From the NCBI GenBank assembly GCA_021432655.1, contig MU271236.1:1-64000 (forward strand): DNA of 64,000 nucleotides, in the 5' to 3' direction. The notes below the pieces were generated by a model. That model did no database searches. It saw only the letters and a list, made by a program, of their open reading frames with translations, and was not told the DNA's origin. Shown here piece after piece: positions 9,502-51,554 of the stretch; position 1 is the first letter of the stretch, and each line of letters starts with the position of its first letter. Both the position numbers and the translations under genes were made by a program. Source of the DNA: Atractiella rhizophila (taxonomy: Eukaryota).

Positions 9502-12500
9502 ATGTCGAATTCTTCACCATCCCCTCGAACTCGCCTACGCCTCCTCCTCCTCCTTTTCATCCTTCTCTCTTCCCCCGACTTCCACTCCCGCCGAGTCTCC
9601 AGCTCATTAGCTCAAGCAGCGCCGACGGAGCAGGACGCTACCGTCTCACACCTTCTGGCCCGAGGCATGGACGGAGTGGGTAGCGCTAGCGAGCTGGAGA
9701 AAAGGTCATGGAACTTTGGTTCCTTTTTTTCATCTAACTGGCACACGAACGACGAGGGGGGAGATGAGAACGACGTGGACAACCTAGTCGACGGTGAGAC
9801 CGGGAATAAGGCGACATCGTTGAAGGGTTTGTTTCTAAGCTTAGCCCGTGGATCGTCACTCACCGATTGATTGGGATACAGAGGATGTGACCCAGACGGG
9901 AGACTCAGGGGACTCGGGGGACGGTTCGAAAGGAGATTCTGGTTCGAGTTCAGGAGGCGATTCGAAGGGTGGTGATGGATTCTTCACCATCCCCTCGAAC
10001 TCGCCTACGCCTCCTCCTCCTCCTTTTCATCCTTCTCTCTTCCCCCGACTTCCACTCCCGCCGAGTCTCCAGCTCATTAGCTCAAGCAGCGCCGACGGAG
10101 CAGGACGCTACCGTCTCACACCTTCTGGCCCGAGGCATGGACGGAGTGGGTAGCGCTAGCGAGCTGGAGAAAAGGTCATGGAACTTTGGTTCCTTTTTTT
10201 CATCTAACTGGCACACGAACGACGAGGGGGGAGATGAGAACGACGTGGACAACCTAGTCGACGGTGAGACCGGGAATAAGGCGACATCGTTGAAGGGTTT
10301 GTTTCTAAGCTTAACCCGTGGATCGTCACTCACCGATTGATTGGGATACAGAGGATGTGACCCAGACGGGAGACTCAGGGGACTCGGGGGACGGTTCGAA
10401 AGGAGATTCTGGTTCGAGTTCAGGAGGCGATTCGAAGGGTGGTGATGGGAATGGAAATTCGGGTGGAGACGGGAAAGGAGATTCATCATCCAACGGCGAC
10501 GGAAAGGGAAACTCGTCCTCCAATGATGATGGAAAGGGAGACTCTTCATCCGGCTCTTCAGGCGGCGACGGTAAAGGTGGCTCGTCTTCGAGTGGCGATG
10601 GGAAAGGAGATTCATCTTCGAGCGGAGATGGGAAGGGAGATTCGTCATCCAGTTCTTCGGGTGGTGATGGCAAAGGTGATTCCTCTAGCGGAGATGGAAA
10701 GGGGGACTCATCATCTTCATCCGGTTCCTCTGGTGGGGATGGAAAGGGAGATTCTTCCGGTGGGGATGGAAAGGGAGACTCCTCGTCTTCATCTGGTTCT
10801 TCTGGCGGAGGTGGGAAGGGAGATTCTTCAGGCAGTGATGGCAAAGGAGATTCCTCTAGTGGAGATGGAAAAGGAGACTCCTCGTCCGGTTCCTCCGGTG
10901 GAGATGGCAAGGGAGATTCGTCAAATGGCGATGGGAAGGGTGACTCTTCTAGTGGTGATGGAAAGGGAGACTCATCCTCCGGTTCTTCAGGCGGTGATGG
11001 AAAAGGAGATTCTTCCTCAGGTGGAGATTCAAGTGATGGCAAGGATAACTCTTCTAGCGGCGATGGTAAAGGCGACTCTTCCTCAGGTGGCAATGGGCAG
11101 GGTGGCTCCTCGTCGGGTAGTGAAGGGAAAGGAGACTCTGGGGATGGCGATGGCAAGGACGACTCATCTGGCAGCGGGAACGGTTCTGGCTCGGGAGGTG
11201 ATGGGTCAAGTGACTCTAGTCAAGGGAATGGAGGTGGTGACGGGAAGGGAGATGACGGAGGAGATCAAGGCATCATTCCTTCCATTATATCTGCCCTTTT
11301 TCCCACGACCTCGCAGGGATCGAAAGATGACTCCCCGACCACCAAACACACATCCAGTCCGAAGCCTACCAGTACAACAGATGATGATGATGACCCCCCT
11401 ACCAAGACAACTTCGAAAGATGGAACGCAGACGACGACGTCGAAAGATGATACAGGAGCATCGCCGACTACGACGAAGAACTCGCAAACGACTTCGTCCA
11501 AGCATTCCACCACCACGTTGAGTGAGGATCAAGGTATTTTGCCATCGATCATCTCAGCGCTCTTTCCAACCACCAAAGCATCGGATGAACCGTCTCCCAC
11601 CAAAACGTCCAAAACAGCTTCGCCTACCACAACGAAGGACGACGACGGGACTACGTCCTCCATTCCCGACGATGCTCCAACCGCGACTTCAAAACAGCCC
11701 CAAACCACAAGTAAAGGATCGGAGACGACGGATGGGAAGACTGCTTCGACTTCTACGTCCACATCAACTTTATCTTGGATTGGAATCCCCATTCCCACAG
11801 GTCAGACCTCAACATCAAACCCTTATTCTGCTTCCTATTCTCCTACCAGCACACATTCCACCTCAACAACGCTCAGGTGGGGAGGGGAAGACCCTTTCAC
11901 TTCGAGTGCACATACTTCTTCCTATCCGTCTAACTCTCCTTCTTCCTATTCTGGCTCAAATTCAGATTCAGTGACATTTGGCTCCATTCAACCTCCGGGG
12001 ACCTCTCCTTCTCCACGTCCCACCGGAACTGCCACTACCACCAGCTCCGTCATCTTTGGTTCAATACAGAACCCATGGGATATACTTACCCTAACGCGGA
12101 CAGAAACTAGCACCACGGCACTACCTGGGACACGGAACGTGAGCGTTGTATACTATGTCCCCACCCAACAAGGGTACAACGGTATCCCAGGTGCTCTCCA
12201 AAACACCCCTACTAGCTCAGGTTCACTACCCAACTCCTTCGTCAACAATGGCCTTTCTGTTGACAGTGGGAAGACTAGCGCTCCGGCATCGACATTTGTC
12301 CCAAATCCAGCAGCAACAAGAACAGCCAAGAATGGAGATGGCGACCAGGGAAGTACCGCCATCCCTCCAATGACTGGTGTGACACATCAGATCGCAGTCT
12401 CAGATATGGCTGGGGATTTGATTTTCGATCCTCCCTCGGTGAATGCAACCCCTGGGGATCTGGTCGAATTCGTGTTTATGTATGTGGACTGGGGGAGTGC

Positions 12501-13216
12501 GCTTTCGAACTCAACGGGAGGGTCGGGGAAGAATACGGATGGGTCCGGTGATGCGTTGCAGATGAGGGACTGGGCAGTGACACAGAGCGATTTTTGGACC
12601 CCATGCACTTCGCTCAAGGGAGGGTTTGATTCTGGATTCTGGGTGAAAGGCAACTCCAAATTCGAGGGAATCGATCACCACTATAACGCATCCTCACCGT
12701 TCACATCCTTCTCGAACTCCAATGCTCCAACCTCCGTAACAAGCCTTAATCAAAGCGGGACAACAACATCATCACCACCCACGACTACAATTGTAGGCAC
12801 TTCAGGTGGGACAACCACCAACGGCAATTCCACAACCATAGCTGGAAGAAGGACATATTCTATCATGATCGTTGACAACTCCCCTCTCTGGTTCTACTGT
12901 CGACTGAATACGACGGAGCAGACTGCTTGCAAGAGTGGAATGGGTATGTTTTCCTTTCTTTGCCCTTCGCAATGCTGACCTTAGATGCCAAACAGTTGGC
13001 GCCATCAATGCTCCTAGTACGTCCTATTTACTATCCTCATCTCGAGCTAATCAACGGACTGTGGTACTAGCGACGGGCATGACATACACGTCTTTCATTA
13101 ACATGGCGAAAGGTACTGGAGATACCCCAACGCCTGATTCCTCTTCGACAAACACTGCAGCTTCAACATCAATAGTAGCTTTTATCTTTGGCTTAATGCT
13201 CTTACCCTATCTTTAA
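9502..13216 (+). CDS. Secreted/GPI-anchored Gly-Ser-Asp- and Ser/Thr-rich cell-surface protein with a C-terminal cupredoxin-like domain (5' end tandemly duplicated)
   Basis: Signal peptide (RLRLLLLLFILLS), Kex2-like LEKR and GDGKGDSSS repeats. The segment FDPPSVNATPGDLVEFVF..VTQS..PC..GFDSGF..PLWFYC..C..GM(V)GAIN is typical of fungal extracellular serine-rich cupredoxin-like proteins. The C-terminus is hydrophobic. Confidence 0.8.
9509..10448. repeat. Direct tandem duplication, 2 x 470 bp (9509-9978 / 9979-10448)
   Basis: The copies are identical except for one visible intronic substitution (ttagccc/ttaaccc). Confidence 0.95.
10440..11262 (+). repeat. Coding low-complexity minisatellite (GDGKGDSSS-type units)
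   Basis: About 20 imperfect GGxGATGGxAAxGGxGAxTC units in one open frame. Confidence 0.9.
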
Positions 13217-38789: not shown

Positions 38790-39900
38790 ATGTCCAACCA
38801 CGAAAGACCTTAATATCGACCACGCCACACCGTCACTCCCACTCCATCAACTTGGCCATTGACACCTGGCTGCCTCCATAAACAACGACAAATCCCTGTG
38901 CTCTATCCTTCGGCAGATCCATGAATATCCTCCTCCTCAAGAGTTCCGGCGCTCCATCCGCGTAGAAAGGTGCAAGAGCTGTGACGGCGGCTCAACAAGG
39001 ATTTGATGGTCATCTATTGATCCCTATAAGCATCAGGACTTTTGTTGATGAAACAAGGCGAGTAAGATACGAACCAAAGCGTTCAATCATGTCCACTACC
39101 CTTGCGTCTTCAACTACCACACTCCTTACGCCTCCTTTTGTGAGTAAGACCACGTCTTATGCATTCTTTCGAGACAGTCTTTGCGCCTAGCGAGCCGGCA
39201 ATGGAGGTTATTGCTTCCAATGACACGAGTTGTGGAGTCGGCGCACTGTGGTCCGCGTATTAGGCTAGGAGGAGGGGCGGAAAGAGGCGGCTTCGCTCGT
39301 TTCGACAGCAGCGACTGATACTGTTCCATTTTGTTGAACGTATCAGCTGTGAATCTCAATCTCATACAGAGGAGGATAAGGAATGGAAGCGCACCGTGAA
39401 CCCAGCCTACTTCTTCAAGTCCCTTAAGCATACCTCCAAGCAATCCACCACCTGTTCAATCTGGCTTGAAGCCCTCTTACCCATTGGTCTTTGATTTCCC
39501 GCACCAGACTCGCATTTCCCTCGTGGTTCAAAGGCGACACTTACGCCGCTCCCCTCTCTCCCTATCCGCCCTCCTTCAACCAGTCGTTTTTAGCGAGTTC
39601 GTTGCTCGCATCCTAACTGGCTACGTGTCGTTCAAGTCGACGGTCGTGATTGGAGTCCCACAAGTTGAAGACGGGAGGAGATGGACGATGGAGTAGGGAC
39701 GGGAACGAGGGTGGTTGATAGTCTGAGTGCACGGTTGGAGGCGCAGGCAAGAGGTGGATGTTTGGATGTTTGGATCCGTTGCGTTGGGAGCGGATGCAGT
39801 GGTCGATGCCGCAACGTCTCGCCGAGTTGCACGGAGGAAGTTTGAAGGGAGCGAAGCAAAGAACCGTGTTGAGTTGAGGGTGTTGAGGGTGGAGGGCATG
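38790..39900 (-). pseudogene. Degenerate L-serine dehydratase paralogue
   Basis: Colinear homology to 49777-51063 (e.g. LLGGMLKGLEEVGWVHG, PSSISSRLQLVG) with many frameshifts and stops. Confidence 0.85.
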
Positions 39901-39956
39901 ACTCAACACTGAGGCACCGATCTTTGTTCACGTTTAAATTTGACCTCGACGAAAGA

Positions 39957-41786
39957 TTGTCGACAGTGTTCCCACCGCTGCCTTTTCACTTGCAGTAACC
40001 TCGAGTTTCCTTCACGATTCCACCATCACTCGGCTCTGCTCCTCATCCAGCAATTCTTTCTTCAGGCAGTCTCCTATCAATCCAGGTACTTTCGATGTGA
40101 ACAAAGCAGCAGAAATGGTCCCAAGCGAATAGGAGGGATGGTACGACGGAATTCTCGCAAGGAGTGTTGTGGAATCCACGTTGAAAAATCTGAGTCAAGG
40201 GGGGTGGTGAAGGTGTGTTTCCTCTCTTGAGAAGAAACTGAGAGAAGTCGCACTTCATTGGACATCCCTGTAAACTTGAATGGTTTTGATGACATTTTGG
40301 GTCTATTTACCAATGGCAGAGCACCGTCTTGGACATACCCCTGCTGGCTATTAAATGGCTTAGACCAATATTCAACGCGGTGGCTTTGTCCCAACCCTGC
40401 AACGTCATTGGGCATGTAGGAATTGGCTTTCCCTGCTCCCGGAGATTCCCTTCACAACTTGTCACATAAATTTATCTGCAATCTTAATCTTCATTTTGAG
40501 AAATATCGGCTGAAATGCCGCCTAGCCAGATGCTCCTGCTTCACTGAAAGCATTCACGGACCGTTGTCGTTAATTTTCTCTCCCTCGCAAGCCACGAGGC
40601 AAACCCCTTCTCAGCTGGGAAATCGATGGCAAAGGAATCAGGGCAACGTCATCTTCACACTTCATCCCCAGCACCTCCAAAACGTTCACTGGCGGCTTGC
40701 CCCATGGCATGTCTCCGAAGAAAGCGCATGAAGTCGATCGCTTCATCGCACTTGCCCAAACGCTCCTGTCCAATGAACCACAGATTAAGAGCGCGATTGA
40801 TATTGGATCCGGACGAGCACATCTCTCTGTTGCTGTGACCGGAGAGCCACTGCTTCTTGATGTCTGTGCGATCGAGAGCAGCTCCTCTCAAGTCATTGGG
40901 GCAGAGAAGTTAGTTTCAAACCGACTGAAATATAAGAAAAAGGAGGAAGAGGAACATAAGAGAGGGATGTTGACGTTGAAAACGGAAGTGTTGGATGAGA
41001 ATGGCATGAGAAAAATTCTGCAGGAAGGACGTGCGGAGAAGGAGGAGGGAAGACTCGTTTGTGCTTTGCACGCCTGTGGAGATCTTACTGTCGACACGTT
41101 GCGTGCTTTCGTTAGCTCAGGAAGTGCGGAACGTTAAGATGTTGTTGATCGCGATTGGGTATTGCTACAATCTTACTTCCTCTTCCAGTGCGTGTCTTTC
41201 GGGTCAATCTGTTGTAGAATAGTCTCATATGTGTTGTTCAAGACTTCCCATTTCATCTATCCAACATTTCTCCTACTTTCACTCACAATCACCTTGTTCT
41301 CGCCACTCAATCTCCCATACTGTGGTCGTCTCAGCGTCATCCTGGGAAGCCGCCAAACTATCCATGCGCAAACTTGTCTATCGAGCACGTCTTCAAGTAG
41401 AGCTCGACGCATCTCGAGGTCCTTCTCCTTCTGAGAATAGGGTCGGTAGACTGGCGGACTCTCGTTTTCTTTCATACGAGACCTTTCGCTCAAAAGCGTT
41501 GAAGAAGATGCATCTCAACGAGAATGATGTTGCACGACTTGAACCTCAAGGAGAATGGGAAGGATTCGAGAAGACGTTCATGTTCTTTTGGACACTCAGA
41601 TGTCTTCTCGGACCAGTGCTGGAGAGCTATATTGTGTTGGAGAGATTCACTGGGCTTGCTTTGCTGTTGCAAGAGCGACTGGCTGCAGACGAGAATACGG
41701 GCAAGGAGCTTAGGCTGGAATTGTGGAATCTGTTTGATCAGGAGGCAGGCGGTAGTGCAAGAAACCTAGCTATCGTTGTACGTTGA
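39957..41786 (+). pseudogene. METTL25-like copy 2, disrupted
   Basis: Start ATG changed to TTG, exon 1 is frameshifted, and CAA>TAA gives an in-frame stop at ~41135. The rest is highly similar to 29406-31227. Confidence 0.85.
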
Positions 41787-41865
41787 AAGATTTCATTGAA
41801 AGAACACAAGACCCGCTAAATCTCGAATTTAGAAGAAGCATTGCACATCATTTCTCCGGGATTTC

Positions 41866-42243
41866 TTAACAAGTTCCGGTGCATTGGCAGGTAACGCAAG
41901 AGCAGCATCTACCGCAGCTCTGTAGAGATCGTTTTGGCGTCCGCGACTCAGATTATGAAAAATGCTTACCACGGAGCACGCTCCGCAACCTGTGGAGATA
42001 TTTCAGTCAACGTTGAGGCAGTCGAAGTTTGACTTACAAGCAGTGTCAATGGTCAAGTTTCCAGTGGCCCAATTAGTCCAAAACTTGGCTTGGCTATCAG
42101 TTTCGAATAGGTCGGTGGAAGCAGGAGCTTATCTCCTCTTGGGAAACCATGATAGGACCAGCACTACCAACTGCCGGGGCAGACGAAGCGCAGGATATCA
42201 AGGAGAATGCCATGACGCTGTAGAAAATTGCAGAGATTTGCAC
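41866..42243 (-). pseudogene. Cys-rich peptide gene copy 2 (start GTG, intron-1 donor GT>AT)
   Basis: Offset 10558 from copy 1. All 10 Cys codons are retained (CCGACSVSCGRCCSCVTCQCTGTC) with several synonymous differences. Confidence 0.75.
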
Positions 42244-44002
42244 TTTTTCTTTTGGACTGCTGAGTACCCTTTTGTGACCGGAAAAATGCTTGGTCCTGAA
42301 GCAGCCAGGATCGAGAGCTTTTATATTTCCTACATCTGCATGCGGTGCTCTCGCGGTTTCGCCAAACCTCAAGAACAAAGGAAACGGACCAGTAGCTCAA
42401 TAATGTTGAGACGGAAGGAGCGCTGGAGAACAATGGTTCCTTTGACCTTTGAGGGGTGTGTTCCTCGGATGATTGGTAGTTGGCATCCGTCTAGCGGTGT
42501 ACCCTGAGGCACTGTTGCAAAGAAAGCATCATACAATGCAAAAAAAAAACAAGCAAGGGATCAGATATTTTCCGTCACAGTGAAATAAGAACACAATGCA
42601 AGGGAACTTGCATTCACCGCCAAAAAATGACACAGAAGAACCAGCAACTTGCTGATTCCAAACGAGCACAGCAAAGCTTTATCGGCTTTTGCAATTCTGC
42701 CCTGGCTCAGTCACGTGACAGAGAGAGGTAGCCTCTTGAAAGTCACAGACCTCATCGCTTTCGCAGAGCAGTTCCCATTATTGTTCTAATCGCAGTCCTA
42801 AGTCCTTCGAATGACCATCGGCGGGTCGTCTCATACCTTCTGTCTTTGGTAAGAAAGGCGTTTCTCAAGTCTACCTATTGAACCTTCCTAAGCTCTGCCT
42901 AGCACAGGCCAAAGATGGCGTAGTATCGGGTAGCAGAGTTCAAATGTTTCAACGACGCTATTTCGGGGTCCGTATGAGCAAATCCTCTAGTTCTTCTGCT
43001 ATCCTAACCTCCGTATACCAACAGTTACGTTGAGCTTCTTAGCATCATACCCTCCTACCCACGTAACTGGCTTCTTAGGAAATACGCTTTCGCTCAGTTG
43101 CTGCACTAGATTCGTCGCTCTCGTCGCTTCAGCAGGAATCGACGTCCTCCTCGAGCATCCGCCACGAGGTCAGTTCCATTCCCCCTGAATCAGCCCCCTC
43201 TCAAAGTTCCAACGTTGCGCGTGGCTTAGCCCGAAATCAGCTTGCTACTCGCCTCTGCCGAGTCCCACTCCTTTCCCTTAAAGAACCGGCATTAGGAGGG
43301 AGGGATACCAGTTAGAGGTTATGTGCTCGAAGTTGGGGTGGAGAGGGCGATTGATAGGAGGGGTTGAAGGGAACTGAGCGGTGGAAAAGTTGTTTCAGTT
43401 GGCGGCTGCTTTGGAAAGGGAAAGTGCTACTTGATCAGAGATGCAGGTGCGTTCAACTCTTCTTAGGATGTGACAAAATTGTGCTGATTAACTCTCTGTC
43501 CCTCCAGGTATTAATTGGCCTTTGGATGTTTTCAATTACCAAAGGGTGATGAAGCGACAAACAATGGAAGTGGTCCATGGAAGTGGTCCAAATCTAGCCC
43601 TATCCTTGACGCTTACCGTCTCGACGACGCTCATCTCCTTTTGTCTCCAATATTTCTATCAACCCCTGGGGTCGACCAGCGCCTCACCTCATCTATGCCT
43701 CATGACATAAGTACTACTAACTCTCAATCCCATCGCCTGATGGAGTGAACACGGTGGGATCAGGAGTGCCAGCGATTGGAGAAGAGAGGAATCCGGAACT
43801 TATTAGGGAAAGAGCAGTGGCGGCGGGACGGATCTAGGGTTGGCTAACTGGAGTTCCTCATAGGCTCATAGGATTCGTCGTAGGCAGAAGAAGGCGGCGA
43901 CGCGAATCAAGAAGTAGGGTTCACGCGTTCACGCGTCACGCGTCTCAGTGAGTTAGGGTTAGTTGTGGGTGTGGAGACATGGAGACGAAAGAGTTGGAAA
44001 TT

Positions 44003-45027
44003 TATCGAGAAAGTCCAAGGCAGCTCAAGAAGTCCGTAAAATTAGAACAAGTTGTTTGGGATATTATAACATTGAGCGACGACAGCTTCTGGGCTGGAGA
44101 GAGCTGAAGTGTGATTTCGTAAATTCGTTCGCTTTCGGATGTGAGTATTTCCTCGTTTCGCCCCAGGAAAAGCACAGAAATCATAGTGATGTGGCTTTGC
44201 CGTTGTCTCGAAACTGCTCTTCAAAAGAGAGAGAAGAGGCACTCGCGATTTGGCTTTCTTGATTTCGTCTGCTTCCAAAGCGCACGTACGATGGCAGAGT
44301 TCCAAAAAGACTTAACAGGACTTAATTCATTCTACAAAGGGAAAGAGCTCCTATGTACAGTTTAGAGAGAGGTACTGTGCCAGTTTTGACGGCTCAAGGG
44401 AACGAACTGAGTAGCAAAGCACGCCGTTTGGCGAAGTTGCGACCAATCGCTCTCTCGAATTTTAACAAAGCTGGATTCATTTCTATTGTATCCAAGAAAC
44501 GCACAGAAGCAAGGATATCGAGAAAGTCCAAGGCAGCTCAAGAAGTCCGGAAAATTAGAACAAGTTGTTTGGGATATTATAACATTGAGCGGCGATAGCT
44601 TCTGGCCTGGAGAGAGCTGAAGTGTGATTTCGTAAATTCGTTCTCTTTCGGATGTGAGTATTTCCTCGTTTCGCCCCAGGAAAAGCACAGAAATCATAGC
44701 GATGTGGCTTTGCCGTTGTCTCGAAACTGCTCTTCAAAAGAGAGAGAAGAGGCACTCGCGATTTGGCTTTCTTGATTTCGTCTGCTTCCAAAGCGCACGT
44801 ACGATGGCAGAGTTCCAAAAAGACTTAACAGGACTTAATTCATTCTACAAAGGGAAAGAGCTCCTATGTACAGTTCGGAGAGAGGTACTGTACCAGCTTT
44901 GACGGCTCAAGGGAACGAACTGAGTAGCAAAGCACTGCGTTTGGCGAAGTTGCGACCAATCGCTCTCTCGAATTTTAACAAAGCTGGATTCATTTCCATT
45001 GTATCCAAGAAACGCACAGAAGCAAGG
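44003..45027. repeat. Direct tandem duplication, 2 x ~513 bp, immediately upstream of NLR copy 2
   Basis: 44003-44515 and 44516-45027 differ by only a few substitutions and indels. The homologous region upstream of NLR copy 1 is single. Confidence 0.95.
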
Positions 45028-45153
45028 CTAACAAAAGTGTGACTAGATTGTACCAGACTCAGGCAGCTCCTTCCTTTTCACCTTTAACCACGATACCAAT
45101 CGCTGTTCTTCCTCATTAATACTACAATCGAACAATCTGTTATTTTGCCCTAC

Positions 45154-48100
45154 ATGCCCTCGAATTCCGTCAAGGTGTTCAAAGTTCCTGAAGAGATCAA
45201 GAAAGCGAACCCACTCGGACTACGGATCCTTTCTATCGACAATGGAGGCGTCGGTACTTTCTCAGCAGCCTACATGCTCGAACGCATCATACATCAAGCC
45301 GCACATCTTCTCAAAGTCCCGGAAGACGAAGAGCTTCGGCCTTGCGATGTCTTCGATCTCATTTGTGGGACTTCTACTGGCGGTTGGATCGCACTTATGC
45401 TCGGGAGGCTCGGGATGACAGTACGTCAGTGCATTACAGCGTACGAAGAGATCGCGCGAGACGGCTTTCTGGAAGAGGATTCGGACCCCACTGGCGAGTA
45501 CTTGTTCTCGGCGAAGAAGCTCGAAGAGACTTTGATCTCCATCATCCAGCGACACACGCCCCCGCCTGAAGATGCTTCGGAGCCACTTCCTATGAAAGAC
45601 CCTTCTCCGCAGGATAGGTGCAGGACGTTCGTGCTCTCTAGCTATCAAGCCAGCGTTGTCGTCTCCACGGAGATGCGCACCTACGACATTCATCATGCTG
45701 GATCTACCTCTCAATCCGCGTCCCCATATTTCGTCTGGCAAGCCGCAAGGGCTACGTCTGCCTGTCCTCCTTTCTTCCCTCCCATGAACGAAGATTCCAC
45801 CGGCTATATTCAGCTTAGCGCCAACAACCCTACATCGGTAGCTGTCGACGAAGCCAAGCGGATTTGGGGACCCAGCAGTGAGATTGCCTGTCTTGTGTCT
45901 CTCGGCTCGGGAGTTGCACGGGCTGTCAATTTGAGCCACATTCGGGGTGACATCCAAGAAGCACTGAAGGCGATAGTCGCGAATTGCATGAACGTTTCGA
46001 AGTACGTGAAGGTGCAGATGCAGGACCGTGAGATGGGTCATTGTTATCATCGCTTCTCGGTTGATACATTTGGAGACTTCAAGTGGGAGGAATGGGAGCG
46101 AAAGGAGGACGTTGTGGGCTGCACGAGGGCTTACATGGAGGCAATGAATCATGAAGTGTCATCCGCGACGAGGTCGCTCGTGCAAAGTATTCTCTTTGTT
46201 GCGTGATTGATGGCAGCATGCTCACTTGCCCTTGGTTAGGCTGTAAACAACGCATTGCTGTGCCCAAAAAGCTTCCGTTGCCTCATACAGGAGATTGTTA
46301 TGGAAGAGATGACGAAGTTGCGACGGCAATCAAGTGCATCCTCACCGACAAGAAACATCTTGCGATCATCGGTGGCGCTGGCAATGGGAAGTCTACTGTG
46401 GCCCGACAAATCTTGCATGCGAAGGAAGTGAAGGATGCATTCACGACAATTGCGGATGGTGAGGAGGAAGACTTTCGGTTCTGGGCCCGATGCGATGCTT
46501 TCTCTACATTTTCATCACTTGCCACATATGTTTGCCGGCAGGTCTTTGCAATAGCCCCTCGACCAGGTGAAAGTGAACTTGGTGCTGTTGCTCGATATTT
46601 TCACCGTCACAAATGTCTCCTTATCTTGGACAATTTTGAAACCACCGCAGAGCGTGACACGGAGCACCTGCAGCCATTCTTTCAAGCTCTTCTTTCTGCA
46701 AACAATACACTGGGGTCCATTCTCATCGTGGCACATCGGGGGCATCGAATCTATCGAGTGAACGTCACAGATGTGGAATTTCGAGAGCTGACAATTAGAG
46801 GCTTATCTGACGCTGCCTGGCTGGACTTGTTCAAGCACCTGTACACGGGAAGAAAGATTTGTACGGAACAGGTGCTCAAGACCATCTTCGCTAAGCTGGA
46901 TCATCACACTTTGTCAATCAAGCTCTTTGTTCTTCGTGCCAACGCAGAGTCAACGAAACATATTTCAACTCTGTTAGAGGAGTGGGAGGCAAAGAAGACA
47001 AAGGTGCTATGGGACAAGGACAGCGAGGAGACTCCAACTCTTGCAACATCGATCTCTTTTTCACTTAGCTTACCTCTTCTCGAAATGCATCAGGACCTAA
47101 GCAGGTTTATACTTGCCGCTCTGTCCTGGACACCGGATGGGCTTTTAGACAATGACATTGTGGCACTTGCAGAAAAATCCAGTCTTCCTGATTCAGGGCA
47201 GTCCTACGAGGTCATCACCTCAATTTTCTCCGTCGGACTCGCTGAAACTGACGAAGACGGCCTGACAAACTCAACACGATTGCGGATGCTTGCGCCAATT
47301 CGTGAACATGTCAACTACTCTGTCTTACATTCCGATCCTAGTTTTAAAACCATTGTACCCTCCCTTGAGCCTGTTACTGAGCGTCTCATGCACAAAGCTC
47401 GGGACAATATCCAAGGATTTGAAGTTGGGGGCAAACGGATAGGGCTGTTGTGTTTCCGCAACGACCATCCAAATCTTGAATACGTGCTTCTGGCTGGTTT
47501 GGAGCATCTTCAAGACCCAACAACCATGGTTTATTTCATGGGAGAAATATGGTACTTTCAGTATCAGCAGCACCTTCTATCAATCGAATTACTGCATCGT
47601 GCTCTGTCCATCAAACAGTTTATGAGCTTACCAGCGAAATTGACTGCCAAATTGACTATGGCTATGGGATTCGCAGTCCGGCAGAAGCAGGCACCACAGC
47701 AGGCATTGAAACATTTGAAGGATGCGAAGGAGTTGTACCATGTGGTAGAAGATCGGCTTGGGCAAGCCTACTGCATTCAAAGCATTGGGGAGATTGAACA
47801 GCTTCAGGGTCAGACAGATGAAGCGCTGAGAAGTTTCAGAAAGGCAAAGGAGCTGTACCAGATGGTAGAAGATCGGCAGGGGAAAGCGCACTGTATTCGC
47901 CTCATGGGGGAGATCGAACAGCATCGGGGTCGGATGGACGAAGCGCTCAGAAGTTTCGAGGAAGCGAAGGAACTGTACCAAGTCGTAGAAGATCAACAGG
48001 GGAAAGCTCACTGCATTCGCAGCATGGGGAAGATCGAGCAACATCGAGGTCAGATGGAGGAAGCGCTAAGATGTTTCAAGGAGGCAAAGGAGCTGTACCA

Positions 48101-49667
48101 GGTTGTAGAAGATCAACAGGCGCAAGCCCACTGCATTCGCAGCATGGGGGAGATCGAACAGCGTGAGGGTCAGATGGAGGAAGCACTGAGACGTTTCGAG
48201 GAGGCAAAGGAGTTGTACGATGTGATAGAAGATCAGCTGGGGCAAGCCCACTGCATTCACAGCATGGGGGAGATTGAACAGCACCGGGGTCGGATGGAAG
48301 AAGCGCTGAGACTTTTCAAGGCGGCGAAGAAGCTGTACCAGGTGGTAGAATTTCAGCAGGGGCAAGCACACTGCATTCACAGCATGGGGGAGATTCAACA
48401 GTCGTGGTCGGATGGAGCAAGCGCTGGGATGTTTCCAGGAGGCGAAGGAGCTGTACCAGGAGGTAGAATATCAACAGGGGAAAGCCCACTGCATTCGTAG
48501 CATGGGGGTTATCGGTCGTGGTCGGATGGAGCAAGCGCTGGGATGTTTCCAGGAGGCGAAGGAGCTGTACCAGGAGGTAGAATATCAACAGGGGAAAGCC
48601 CACTGCATTCGTAGCATGGGGGTTATCGAGCAGCATCGAGGGCAGATGAAAAAAGCGGTGAGACTCTTCGAGGAGGCAATGGAGCTGTACCTGGCGGTAG
48701 AAGATCGGCAGGGGCAAGCACACTGTATTTACAGCATCGGGAAGATCAAGCAGCATCGCGGTCAGATGGGGGAAGCGCTGAGATGTTTCAAGGAGGCAAA
48801 GGAGCTGTACCAGGTGGTAGAAGATCAACAGGGGAAAGCCTACTGCATTCGCAGCATGGGGGAGATCGAACAATGTAAGGGTCAGATGGAGGAAGCGCTG
48901 AGATGTTTCAAGGAGGCAAAGGAGCTGTTCCAGGTGGTAGAAGATCAACAGGGGCAAGCCCACTGCATTCGCAGCGTGGGGGAGATCGAACAATGTCATG
49001 GTCGGATGGAGGAAGCACTGAGACGTTTTGAGGAGGCAAAGGAGCTGTACCAGGTGGTAGAAGATCAACAGGCGCAAGCCCACTGCATTCGCAGCATGGG
49101 GGAGGTCGAACAGCGTCGTGAGCGCAAGCCCACTGCATTCGCAGCATGGGGGAGGTCGAACAGCGTCGTGGTCACATGGAGGAAGCACTGAAATGTTTCG
49201 AGGAGGCAAAGGAGCTCTACCTGCTGGATCAAGACTTAGGATGTCAACTTATTTGTCTTTTCAATATAAGTGCGGTTTACACTGGAGACTCCCAGTCCAA
49301 AAGTATGTTCAAAGCAATCGCGGTACTTGAGGAAGCAGTCAATTTAAGCAAAGCAGCTGGCGGCTATTGCGAGGCTCGGAGCAGAGACAGGCTGGCTCAA
49401 CTCCTCTTCCAAGCATCCCAATACCCCGTCGCGCGAGAGGAAGTTGGTCGCGCCCGTCATCTTTACGCCGCCTGTTTTGCCACTTCCGATGTACATAATT
49501 GTGACAATCTGCTGCTGAAGATTGGGCAAGCGGAAACGAGGCGTCGGTGGAAATGGTTTTGGTACTGTCCCTTCCCTCAATGTCTTGTACATGCTGACAT
49601 CCTTGGCAGGATTGCAACATTGTGCATAGGAATGTTGTCTTTTATCATAAACAAATGGAGGACATAA
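45154..49667 (+). CDS. NLR-like protein: patatin - STAND NTPase - TPR - C-terminal hydrophobic tail (copy 2; frameshifts in the TPR array at ~48400 and ~49121)
   Basis: Same motifs as copy 1, with intron 46187-46239, ~12 TPR units and a terminal 48-nt intron (49562-49609). Confidence 0.9.
47710..49225 (+). repeat. TPR array, 120-nt units (~12 units plus partial duplications)
   Basis: A(H/Y)CI(R/H/Q/Y) recurs at ~120-nt spacing from ~47767 to ~49078, with internal 114-nt and 50-nt duplications. Confidence 0.95.
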
Positions 49668-49776
49668 TGATTCGTATTGACACGATGTATTGGTATTCGG
49701 AAGCTCAGATCGGATGCAGCGATACCATTAAACCAGATTTTGACGCGATCTGGCTTGGGGAAATGAAACGACGCCT

Positions 49777-51063
49777 TCACCCATTCAACCCACGAAAGAG
49801 CTTTATCTCCCCCAACGCCACATCCTCAAACTGTCTCTTCCACTCCATCAACTTCGCCATCGACACTTGATTGCCTCCGCAAACGATAACCACAAACACT
49901 GGTGCTCTATCCTTGGGCACGTCCTTGAATATCTTCTTTAAGAGTTCCGACGCCATATCTGCATAGAAAGGCGCTAGAGCTGCGACGGCGGGTTCAACGA
50001 GGATTTGATGATCATCTATCAGGTTAGACGATTTTGTGATGAAAGCAAGAAGGTAGGAAGACGAACCAGCAAACCGTTCAATCATGTCCACTACCCTTGC
50101 GTCTTCAATTACCACACTCGTGACGCCTCCTTTGTGAGTAAGACAACGTCTTATGCATTCTTTCGAGACAGTCTTTGCGCCCAGCGAGCCGGCGACGGAG
50201 TTTATTGCTTCCAATGACACGAGTTGTGGAGTCGGCGCAGTGTGGTCCGCGTATGAGGCGAGGAGGGAGGCCTGAAGAGAGGCGGCTCCGCTCGTTTCGA
50301 CAGCAGCGACTGGTACTGTCCATTTGGTAGAACGAATCAGCTGGTGAATCTCATACAAAAGAAGATAAGGAATGGAAGCGGACCGTGGCCCCAGCCTACT
50401 CCTTCAAGTCCCATCAACACACCTCCAAGCAATCCACCACCTCCAGCAGAAAGAAATATTCCATCAGGTTTCAAGCCTACTTTCCCCAATTGCTTTTTGA
50501 TTTCTCGCACCATACTCGAATTCCCCTGCATGATAACCTCATGGTCGAAAGGCGACACATAGGCCACTGCTTTTCCACCGGCCCTCCTTTCTTCAACCAG
50601 TCGTTTCGCGAGCTCGTTGCTCTCGTCCCAACTCGCTCCGTGTTGTATCACTTCGATAGTCGTGGTTGCAGAGGATCCGACAAGTTGTAGACGGGAGGAG
50701 ATGGACGATGGAGTGGTGACGGGAACGACGACGGTGCACTTTGATAATCCAAGTGCACGGGAAGTGTAAGCGCAAGCGAGTGCTCCGTTGCCTGATGAAG
50801 GAATGATTGGATGTTGGATGCCTTCAGAGCGAATGAAGTGGGAAATGCCTCTACATCTCGATCGATGAGTATCATTCGAGTTTGCAAGGCAGTGAGAGAA
50901 GAACAGACCTGAGCTTGAAAGATCCGCTGGGCTGGACGTTCTCGAGCTTGAGATAGACTTGAGCTCCGGAGTTGGATGAGAGGAAGGGAGAGTGTTGCAG
51001 CGGTGTTTGGATGTAGAGTTCCTCCCCAGCCGCTGACTTCGCAACTTCATCCTTCCATGCCAT
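49777..51063 (-). CDS. CHA1: L-serine/threonine dehydratase (PLP fold type II)
   Basis: YIQTPL, VYLKLENVQPSGSFKL(R)G (PLP lysine), YVSPFDH, LSAGGGGLLGG, ILVEPA and VIVCGGN motifs. Confidence 0.88.
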
Positions 51064-51554
51064 CGTATCAAGTGAACTGGTCTTCAACACTTCGACGACC
51101 GCGGTGAGACGTCGCCCAGTCGACGATTGTGATCTCAAATATGGACATTGGATAAGTGGAAACAGCTTATCGTCGAGTCAGCCTGAGCTCTTCAAGTTTG
51201 CAATGCTAAAATACAAAGGACCCGCTTTCAAGTCATGTCGCGACGCATAATAAAATAATTGAAATGAGGAAAATGCTAGAAAAGTACTGAAGTACTGAAG
51301 GGTAAGGATGGTACGTGCAACGCGTTCCTACCCCAGATTGAAGAGTTCTTTCTTTCGGATTGGAGATTCGGAACCTTCGCTAGCTGTAGAATCGTGACGT
51401 AACCCCGAATATCAAAAGCACCCTCGCTTGCTGCCTGCTTCTCAACTTCAACAACTTCAGCATCTACTTTCAGTCTTACTTCTAAGAAACGACAGAAAAT
51501 AAAGAGTAACACCAACGAAATCGAACTACGAAAAGAAAAGAAAGAACGAAAGAA

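Follow-up and report, generated by a model that had tools for sequence, protein, structure and literature searches.

The 64,000-nucleotide window analysed here (the whole stretch, positions 1 to 64,000 of contig MU271236.1, assembly GCA_021432655.1, Atractiella rhizophila, forward strand) carries two related genes for NOD-like receptors (NLRs), here termed copy 1 and copy 2. Both encode an N-terminal patatin-like phospholipase, a central P-loop NTPase, a TPR array and a further C-terminal domain. Behind each, across a 48-nt intron, lies a small exon that reads as a single hydrophobic helix: the tail exon. This exon is very probably genuine; its possible role as a membrane anchor is weighed below.

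Two NLR genes and a terminal mini-exon

All features of both genes lie on the plus strand. Exon 1 of copy 2 (45154..46186) starts from the ATG at 45154 and encodes the Patatin domain (PF01734, E 4.3e-15; 56.8 bits against a cut-off of 27.7), so that the N-terminal phospholipase of a Patatin-type NLR is present. Intron 1 (46187..46239; 53 nt, GTATTC..GCTCAC..TAG), conserved in copy 1 at 36071-36123, connects the Patatin frame with the NACHT frame. The NACHT/NB-ARC-like P-loop NTPase and its helical linker follow (46240..47719; Pfam NACHT E 2.9e-08), the match covering residues 69-221 of the open reading frame (ORF) at 46155-48497. NACHT scores 34.2 bits versus a cut-off of 26.7, whereas NB-ARC stays under its own (E 0.0042, 16.8 bits versus 23.5). 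Judged by these profile scores, the central domain is a STAND NTPase, and not clearly of the NB-ARC type of the Neurospora crassa receptor PLP-1.

The TPR array of copy 2 (47720..49118) holds 11.7 units of 120 nt, 83% alike, as delimited by Tandem Repeats Finder (TRF), with TPR_12 matches at E 9.8e-37 and 3.4e-38. It is followed by the C-terminal domain (49212..49538), which consists of degenerate TPR-like helices and is common to A. rhizophila proteins (alignments A1 and A2). This domain is about 110 residues long and comes after the array in both genes. Summed contig depth at 49000-49100 in the DNA sequencing runs is about 100-fold that of single-copy flanks, which suggests many similar TPR units genome-wide, and hence a large paralogous family.

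Copy 1 is built alike: its nucleotide identity to copy 2 is 82%, and 85% in the Patatin exon. Its Patatin-NACHT-TPR frame (35038..37889, with the intron at 36071-36123) ends at TGA 37887-37889, in a degenerate TPR unit. The array (37598-38242) comprises 5.2 units of 120 nt by TRF; across both arrays the units are 79-83% alike. The C-terminal domain ORF (38233..38556) ends ...LLMLGGPKD at a stop at 38554-38556, which recurs in an independent ORF, P0003. With Patatin, a NACHT/NB-ARC-like P-loop and TPR_12 repeats all returned by Pfam, the identification of these genes as NLRs in the initial annotation holds.

The terminal region of copy 2 begins with a basic, Trp-rich linker, RRRWKWFW (49539..49561; AGG CGT CGG TGG AAA TGG TTT TG), which reaches the donor site of the terminal intron: 48 nt, phase 2, GTACTG..GCTGAC..CAG (49562..49609). 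The tail exon (49610..49667) consists of 19 codons, (W)IATLCIGMLSFIINKWRT, plus TAA (49665-49667). Once spliced, the C-terminus reads ...QAETRRRWKWFWIATLCIGMLSFIINKWRT followed by the stop; the part before the intron is ...QAETRRRWKWFW. In copy 1 the linker, HWSKWFW (38565..38584), has 8 extra bases and is out of frame with the C-terminal domain; the intron (38585..38632; 48 nt, GTACGT..GCTGAC..CAG) and tail exon (38633..38687), (W)IIILCIGVLSFIIKWRT plus TAA (38685-38687), give ...HWSKWFWIIILCIGVLSFIIKWRT and the stop after intron removal. The terminal intron is a multiple of three and stop-free; its retention would only insert 16 residues (YCPFPQCLVHADILGR). The initial annotation had the coordinates and translation of the copy 2 intron and tail right, and likewise those of the same intron and tail behind copy 1, out of frame after the stop at 38554-38556. 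Only its start of 49540 needs shifting, as this lies one base inside the first Arg codon, which begins at 49539.

Splicing, frames and relatives of the tail exon

Loose GT..CTRAY..AG candidates of 40-80 nt number 570 on the plus strand of the window, so the intron motif by itself is weak evidence. Comparison of the two copies adds more. Within the terminal intron 37 of 48 bases are identical, with conservation of GTAC, CATGCTGAC and CAG. Read in the tail frame, the copies differ by four synonymous changes, three conservative codon changes and a one-codon indel; the other two frames show one synonymous and six non-synonymous changes (with stops) and one and five, respectively. The ratio of non-synonymous to synonymous substitution (dN/dS, NG86) is 0.21 for the tail exon, from 17 codons and very few sites, alongside 0.22 for Patatin (344 codons), 0.21 for NACHT (490) and 0.29 for the C-terminal domain (104).

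Moreover, an annotated A. rhizophila protein of 198 aa, P0007 (69% identity, 99% query coverage), ends ...WKWLW and then IVTFCIVLSFDIEKWRTY, lacking exactly the 16 intron codons (alignment A2). Transcript evidence comes from run X3, which is taken as RNA because its CT..AC joints are missing from the DNA runs. X3 alone skips three introns (51, 68 and 60 nt) of the neighbouring minus-strand PALP gene, two of the three with clean CT..AC ends, and the 48-nt terminal intron falls in the same size class. (Contigs of run X4, with a share of 0.10 in nine short pieces, were left out of this RNA/DNA comparison.) Of a 150-nt X3 contig, letters 1-133 match 49430-49562 and the final 17 do not match the intron; 17 letters past a junction of 49561 with 49610 would reach 49627, and the next contig, in both X3 and X1, begins at 49629. 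A DNA contig of run X2 is uninterrupted across 49430-49919. Together, the splice signals, the frame-specific substitutions, the P0007 model and the X3 contig support a spliced coding exon, which can be accepted with considerable confidence.

RNA depth is 5-36 over the 3' part of the NLR gene, versus 70-200 in the PALP gene. At 49629-49912 RNA contig depth is about 80, similar to that of the convergent minus-strand PALP gene (49780-51083), whose 3' untranslated region probably overlaps the NLR tail exon in antisense.

As assembled, neither copy offers one continuous frame through the three parts of a Patatin-type NLR. In copy 2 a 2-nt deletion relative to neighbouring repeat units (48400..48404, near 48403) shifts the frame; from ATG 45154 with intron 1 removed, 1,097 codons run to a TAG stop. 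The frame shifts a second time where 50 nt are perfectly duplicated in tandem, at the array's 3' edge (49072..49171; TRF period 50, 2.0 copies, 100%), and the TPR frame ends at TGA 49189-49191. Between the lesions the TPR ORF spans 280 codons (48349-49188); the last ORF (49122-49667) spans 181, and of the codons before the donor only the final 146 share the frame of the tail. The lesions nevertheless sum to +48 nt, so that the NACHT and tail frames coincide, and all else is open. The damage to copy 2 is therefore either of very recent date or an artefact of assembly.

Two splicing routes around the lesions were considered and rejected. Removal of one 50-nt copy by splicing (GT 49105, AG 49154) is unlikely: the donor, GTCGAA, is poor, a branch motif is lacking and no joint was seen there. 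A larger intron, spanning about 48404 to 49121 and so skipping both lesions, leaves the frame unrestored. Among the DNA-run contigs listed, none skips the 50 nt at high identity. A form without the duplication is present only as an approximately 90% identical variant (X2 record 9, 49000-49444; 85 letters replaced by 35), perhaps from a third paralogue, perhaps an allele that has diverged strongly. The contig comparison covered the duplication but, to stay clear of the long repeat, not the 2-nt deletion; most of the depth at 49000-49200 comes from paralogous TPR units.

P0003 is an independent 78-residue ORF, identical to copy 1 at 75 of 78 residues, and has the same ...GGPKD end; the loss of frame in the copy 1 linker is therefore not a read error, and the frameshift suspected in the initial annotation is genuine. 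Copy 1, broken in both TPR array and linker, is best read as a pseudogene, not as a soluble paralogue. The claim that copy 2 is a tail-anchored NLR is supported in part: its tail exon and its NLR domains stand, but its frame is broken twice in the TPR array as assembled. Because the tail is joined to a full-length receptor in neither copy, a tail-anchored receptor is not demonstrated here; plausibly it is the ancestral state, or that of an intact paralogue, rather than the demonstrated product of these loci.

The relatives of the C-terminal domain are few. Searches with it yielded five clusters with E <= 0.001 among 1.84 billion representatives; further searches matched one of 434 candidates (P0006 only) and four of 34. 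P0006 was set aside as evidence on the tail, since its model abandons the domain early on and is joined to a Methyltransf_32 gene. A metagenome scan with alignment A1 gave 23 pattern matches, none confirmed by tblastn, and one with a degenerate 30-letter tail-exon pattern gave no matches. The A. rhizophila models of the family are split at the arrays, the N-terminal pieces measuring 626-731 aa and the C-terminal ones 160-198 aa. Among the family members found, P0002 ends just past the domain; P0004, P0005 and P0006 run on differently.

Two annotated A. rhizophila paralogues, P0001 and P0008, end RQCCQLS and KQCCQLS, with the shared end exact and the linkers unrelated. Both are automatic gene models, read as proteins only and not as DNA. 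The +1 frame of the tail exon reads ...A, stop, ECCLLS, stop in copy 2 and ...A, stop, ACYHLS, stop in copy 1; given these readings, QCCQLS is almost certainly the tail-exon DNA read one base over. A CCaaX box, the lipidation signal of Ras-type proteins, has a Cys four residues from the end, then two mostly aliphatic residues and a permissive last one, with an adjacent palmitoylatable Cys. The ends of P0001 and P0008 resemble such a box, as does ECCLLS plus stop in the +1 frame of copy 2; unlike in a true box, the +1 frame is unreachable in both window copies, with a stop just upstream. At the Cys-4 position the +1 frames carry CLLS (copy 2) or YHLS (copy 1), each behind a stop. A route to the CaaX-like end of copy 2 through a downstream CATAG acceptor was rejected, as it leads into the third frame. 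The linker just before the exon is hypervariable in its indels: 8 bases between the window copies, and a further 11-base difference in P0008 as obtained by back-translation. Conceivably, the last mini-exon is dual-coding, for a transmembrane tail or a lipidation box, and linker indels toggle the receptors between transmembrane, lipid-modified and soluble forms; this idea is a long shot.

A putative membrane anchor and its rivals

The membrane segment is called by hydropathy, on a Kyte-Doolittle-type (KD) scale and by the grand average of hydropathy (GRAVY). Copy 2 has an uncharged stretch of 16 residues with a GRAVY of 2.11, behind RRRWK and ahead of the five end residues NKWRT; in copy 1 the stretch, likewise of 16 residues, reaches 2.74 and lies between HWSK and the four end residues KWRT. 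The end charge is +2. Elsewhere in either gene the maximum KD over 15 residues is at most 1.71, which leaves the tail as the sole transmembrane-grade segment of either gene. Thus a single C-terminal hydrophobic segment lies within about 30 residues of the end, and upstream signal peptides or membrane segments are absent by hydropathy from both genes: the arrangement of a tail-anchored protein. In the window, six-frame stop-free 15-residue stretches with a KD of at least 2.31 number 78 of 73,854 (about 0.1%). A rough sum on a biological hydrophobicity scale comes out negative over the core of 15 residues and close to zero over 17. The hydropathy pattern fits a short tail anchor.

Hydropathy accordingly bears out the single helix between basic flanks that the initial annotation described, but does not favour the mitochondrial or peroxisomal destination it suggested. 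According to excerpts of PMC5450235, a GRAVY > 1.75 marks the tail-anchored proteins of the yeast endoplasmic reticulum (ER), and a strongly charged end is required of peroxisomal ones. The tail values of 2.11-2.74 exceed this threshold; on hydrophobicity, mitochondria or peroxisomes are no likelier a target than the ER.

The explanation proposed here is that the tail exon is the genuine last mini-exon of a lineage-specific Patatin-NACHT-TPR NLR family, serving as a tail anchor in intact members; the chances of this are about even. Splicing would remove the 48-nt phase-2 intron, and the tail exon would add one C-terminal hydrophobic helix right behind the last TPR-like helices: 16 uncharged residues between Trp and Lys/Arg, then an end of 4-5 residues with charge +2. 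In an intact member this helix would most likely insert post-translationally as a tail anchor, fixing the receptor by its sensor end to the cytosolic face of a membrane and placing the phospholipase effector beside its substrate. Membrane insertion, target organelle and functional rationale are inferred here from sequence features, and anchoring by the tail exon is itself an evenly balanced proposition.

Several observations weigh against this explanation. In the assembly the reading frame of copy 2 meets a stop at 48498-48500 and undergoes a second shift at 49122; that of copy 1 is closed at 37887-37889 and once more at 38554-38556. The junction of 49561 with 49610 is not among the listed joints, being too near the contig end, and the 17 end letters of the X3 contig are not displayed, so the acceptor site is not shown by RNA, and the contig hints at splicing rather than proving it. 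P0007 is possibly an ab initio gene model; its tail has only 13 residues before a D and an E, its net end charge is 0, and AlphaFold2 gives that tail a predicted local distance difference test (pLDDT) score of 55-70. In the window, too, the hydrophobic core is short (16 residues). The tail is in frame in two readable members only, the last ORF of copy 2 and P0007; it is out of frame or in another frame in three (copy 1/P0003, P0001 and P0008) and absent from the models P0002, P0004, P0005 and P0006. Finally, the family is tiny, with its five clusters among 1.84 billion representatives, and conservation of the tail would accordingly reflect recent paralogy.

In one rival reading, which takes the initial annotation in full, copy 2 would be intact, its TPR lesions assembly errors, and a tail-anchored NLR of about 1,450 residues encoded. 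Outside the lesions everything is open and well formed (the 280-codon TPR ORF and the 181-codon last ORF); the total of +48 nt brings the NACHT and tail frames into agreement; the 50-nt duplication is without a mismatch (100%) and falls right on the array edge, where mis-joins occur; dN/dS of 0.2-0.3 throughout argues for recent function; the A. rhizophila family models are likewise split at arrays; and the 3' part is transcribed, if at low depth. This reading is nonetheless doubtful. The 50 nt are skipped at high identity by no listed DNA contig, only by the ~90% variant; a 2-nt CA deletion is atypical of homopolymer error; unit divergence of about 17% in the array should allow assembly; and the family does decay, since the frame loss of copy 1 recurs in P0003. 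It is much less probable that only a C-terminal piece is made, of about 150-200 residues (the last TPR units, the C-terminal domain and the tail), from an internal start. Four A. rhizophila models of 160-198 aa do start at an internal array Met, but such short models are more simply explained as truncations at repeat-array breaks or gaps. The last ORF (49122-49667) is open and has Met codons, and RNA covers 49202-49605; the depth of this RNA is low (5-36 versus 70-200 for the neighbour), however, and contigs cannot reveal transcript ends.

A translated tail need not be an anchor: a hydrophobic helix could instead cap or pack onto the TPR solenoid, or mediate self-association. TPR solenoids usually finish with an extra capping helix, the hydrophobic core here is short at 13-16 residues, and the sequence itself is conserved (WKW.WI..CI..LSF.I.KWRT), beyond mere hydrophobicity, although recent paralogy explains that conservation. 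The AlphaFold2 model of P0007 is all helical and shows the tail continuing the last helix, residues 158-197; in the model, such a continuous helix of 40 residues appears too long to pack wholly on a domain of about 100. The tail also comes after a complete C-terminal domain and has no polar face: it is hydrophobic throughout and, like a transmembrane helix, is bounded by Trp/Lys belts at either end. Capping or self-association is therefore judged unlikely, if less so than production of the C-terminal piece. Least probable by far is coincidence: two decaying genes would happen to carry a GT..AG pair and a hydrophobic reading in their untranslated 3' flank. Loose intron signals are indeed frequent (570 in 64 kb on one strand), and both genes have disabling lesions; yet chance would have to produce a substitution pattern specific to the tail frame, the identical junction in P0007, an RNA contig that breaks exactly at the donor, and hydrophobicity with a base rate of about 0.1%.

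Genomic setting, known systems and implications

The two NLR genes belong to a tandem segmental duplication of about 10.5 kb (about 29384-39206 and about 39935-50200), with units 77-89% identical. Each unit contains a Methyltransf_32 gene (29973-30659; 40574-41134), then the NLR gene. In the A. rhizophila model P0006 an NLR C-terminal domain is fused to the downstream Methyltransf_32 gene, so the gene order of the duplicated unit is also present in annotated A. rhizophila. The nearest named proteins to those of the window all come from this basidiomycete (55-82% identity; none identical). In the DNA runs of one sample two forms occur at 49629-50080, 50343 and 50870-50911; they differ by single-nucleotide polymorphisms, 1-nt and 10-nt insertions and a 1-nt deletion, at about half depth, which suggests two haplotypes (dikaryon or diploid) or strain differences from the assembly. 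Elsewhere in the window, a 470-nt tandem duplication (99% identical; 9509-10448) adjoins an 887-codon ORF at 10315-12975 that is rich in Ser/Gly/Asp-rich repeats of 27-93 nt and has no Pfam matches.

The closest known systems are PLP-1 of N. crassa and HET-Z of Podospora anserina, described in excerpts of PMC12881547 and PMC13449251 as Patatin-NB-ARC-TPR NLRs that control allorecognition cell death. In architecture, the sole level at which they were compared, the window genes are like these: an N-terminal patatin-like phospholipase, a central STAND P-loop NTPase and C-terminal TPRs, whose units are highly alike internally (83% in the window). The differences are several. The window family is from a basidiomycete; its NTPase scores higher as NACHT than as NB-ARC; its Patatin domains are only 29-55% identical to the nearest named proteins; and it has an extra C-terminal domain and a spliced hydrophobic tail beyond the layout given in those excerpts. 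By its sequence features this is a family of PLP-1/HET-Z-like NLRs equipped with a tail exon of its own. An NLR end resembling a tail anchor may have arisen independently in P0032 of Rhizoctonia solani, an unrelated full-length model (Patatin-NB-ARC-TPR, 1,167 aa), which ends ...KWTYYLTGTLVALLSIAFMRFYTL, with 18 uncharged residues, GRAVY 1.41 and an end charge of +1. Among 35 longer Patatin homologues it is the sole one with such a hydrophobic segment and short basic end.

Tail-anchored proteins (SNAREs, Fis1, PEX26, ACBD5 and MAVS) share with the candidate a lone C-terminal hydrophobic segment and a very short, positive end; MAVS is a tail-anchored adaptor of innate immunity. In contrast to these, the candidate would be a STAND/NLR protein of more than 1,000 residues with its anchor behind sensor repeats, the segment is short (16 residues), and its frame to the receptor is broken in the assembly. 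Membrane-associated NLRs of plants and animals provide a precedent for NLRs held at membranes: they use N-terminal signal anchors or acylation, and NOD1/2 are palmitoylated. We know of none with a C-terminal transmembrane tail from its own exon.

Full-text literature searches (supplements aside) found no description of a tail-anchored or C-terminally membrane-spanning fungal NLR. In the passages of PMC13449251, PMC10197012 and PMC12881547 that contain it, the word "transmembrane" refers to N-terminal effector helices or belongs to a figure key. Fungal NLRs are catalogued by N-terminal effector, NTPase and repeat type and, in the sections of the literature that the searches returned, are treated as soluble.

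PLP-1 is partnered by a t-SNARE, with sec-9 as a linked gene. A Pfam scan of 36 ORFs of at least 130 aa in the window and 129 ORFs of 55-129 aa near the genes found no SEC9/SNARE-type neighbour, a scan that intron-split exons may escape. If the proposed tail-anchored receptor is real, a membrane-held receptor with a phospholipase effector suggests that some fungal NLRs guard membrane-resident targets on site; cell death would then be executed locally, and receptor localisation could be linked to the target. If the mini-exon were dual-coding as well, a frameshift toggle would set the localisation of an immune-receptor family. For surveys of NLRs the lesson is practical: annotation of this family regularly breaks at the repeat arrays, and small terminal exons are then easily lost or missed.

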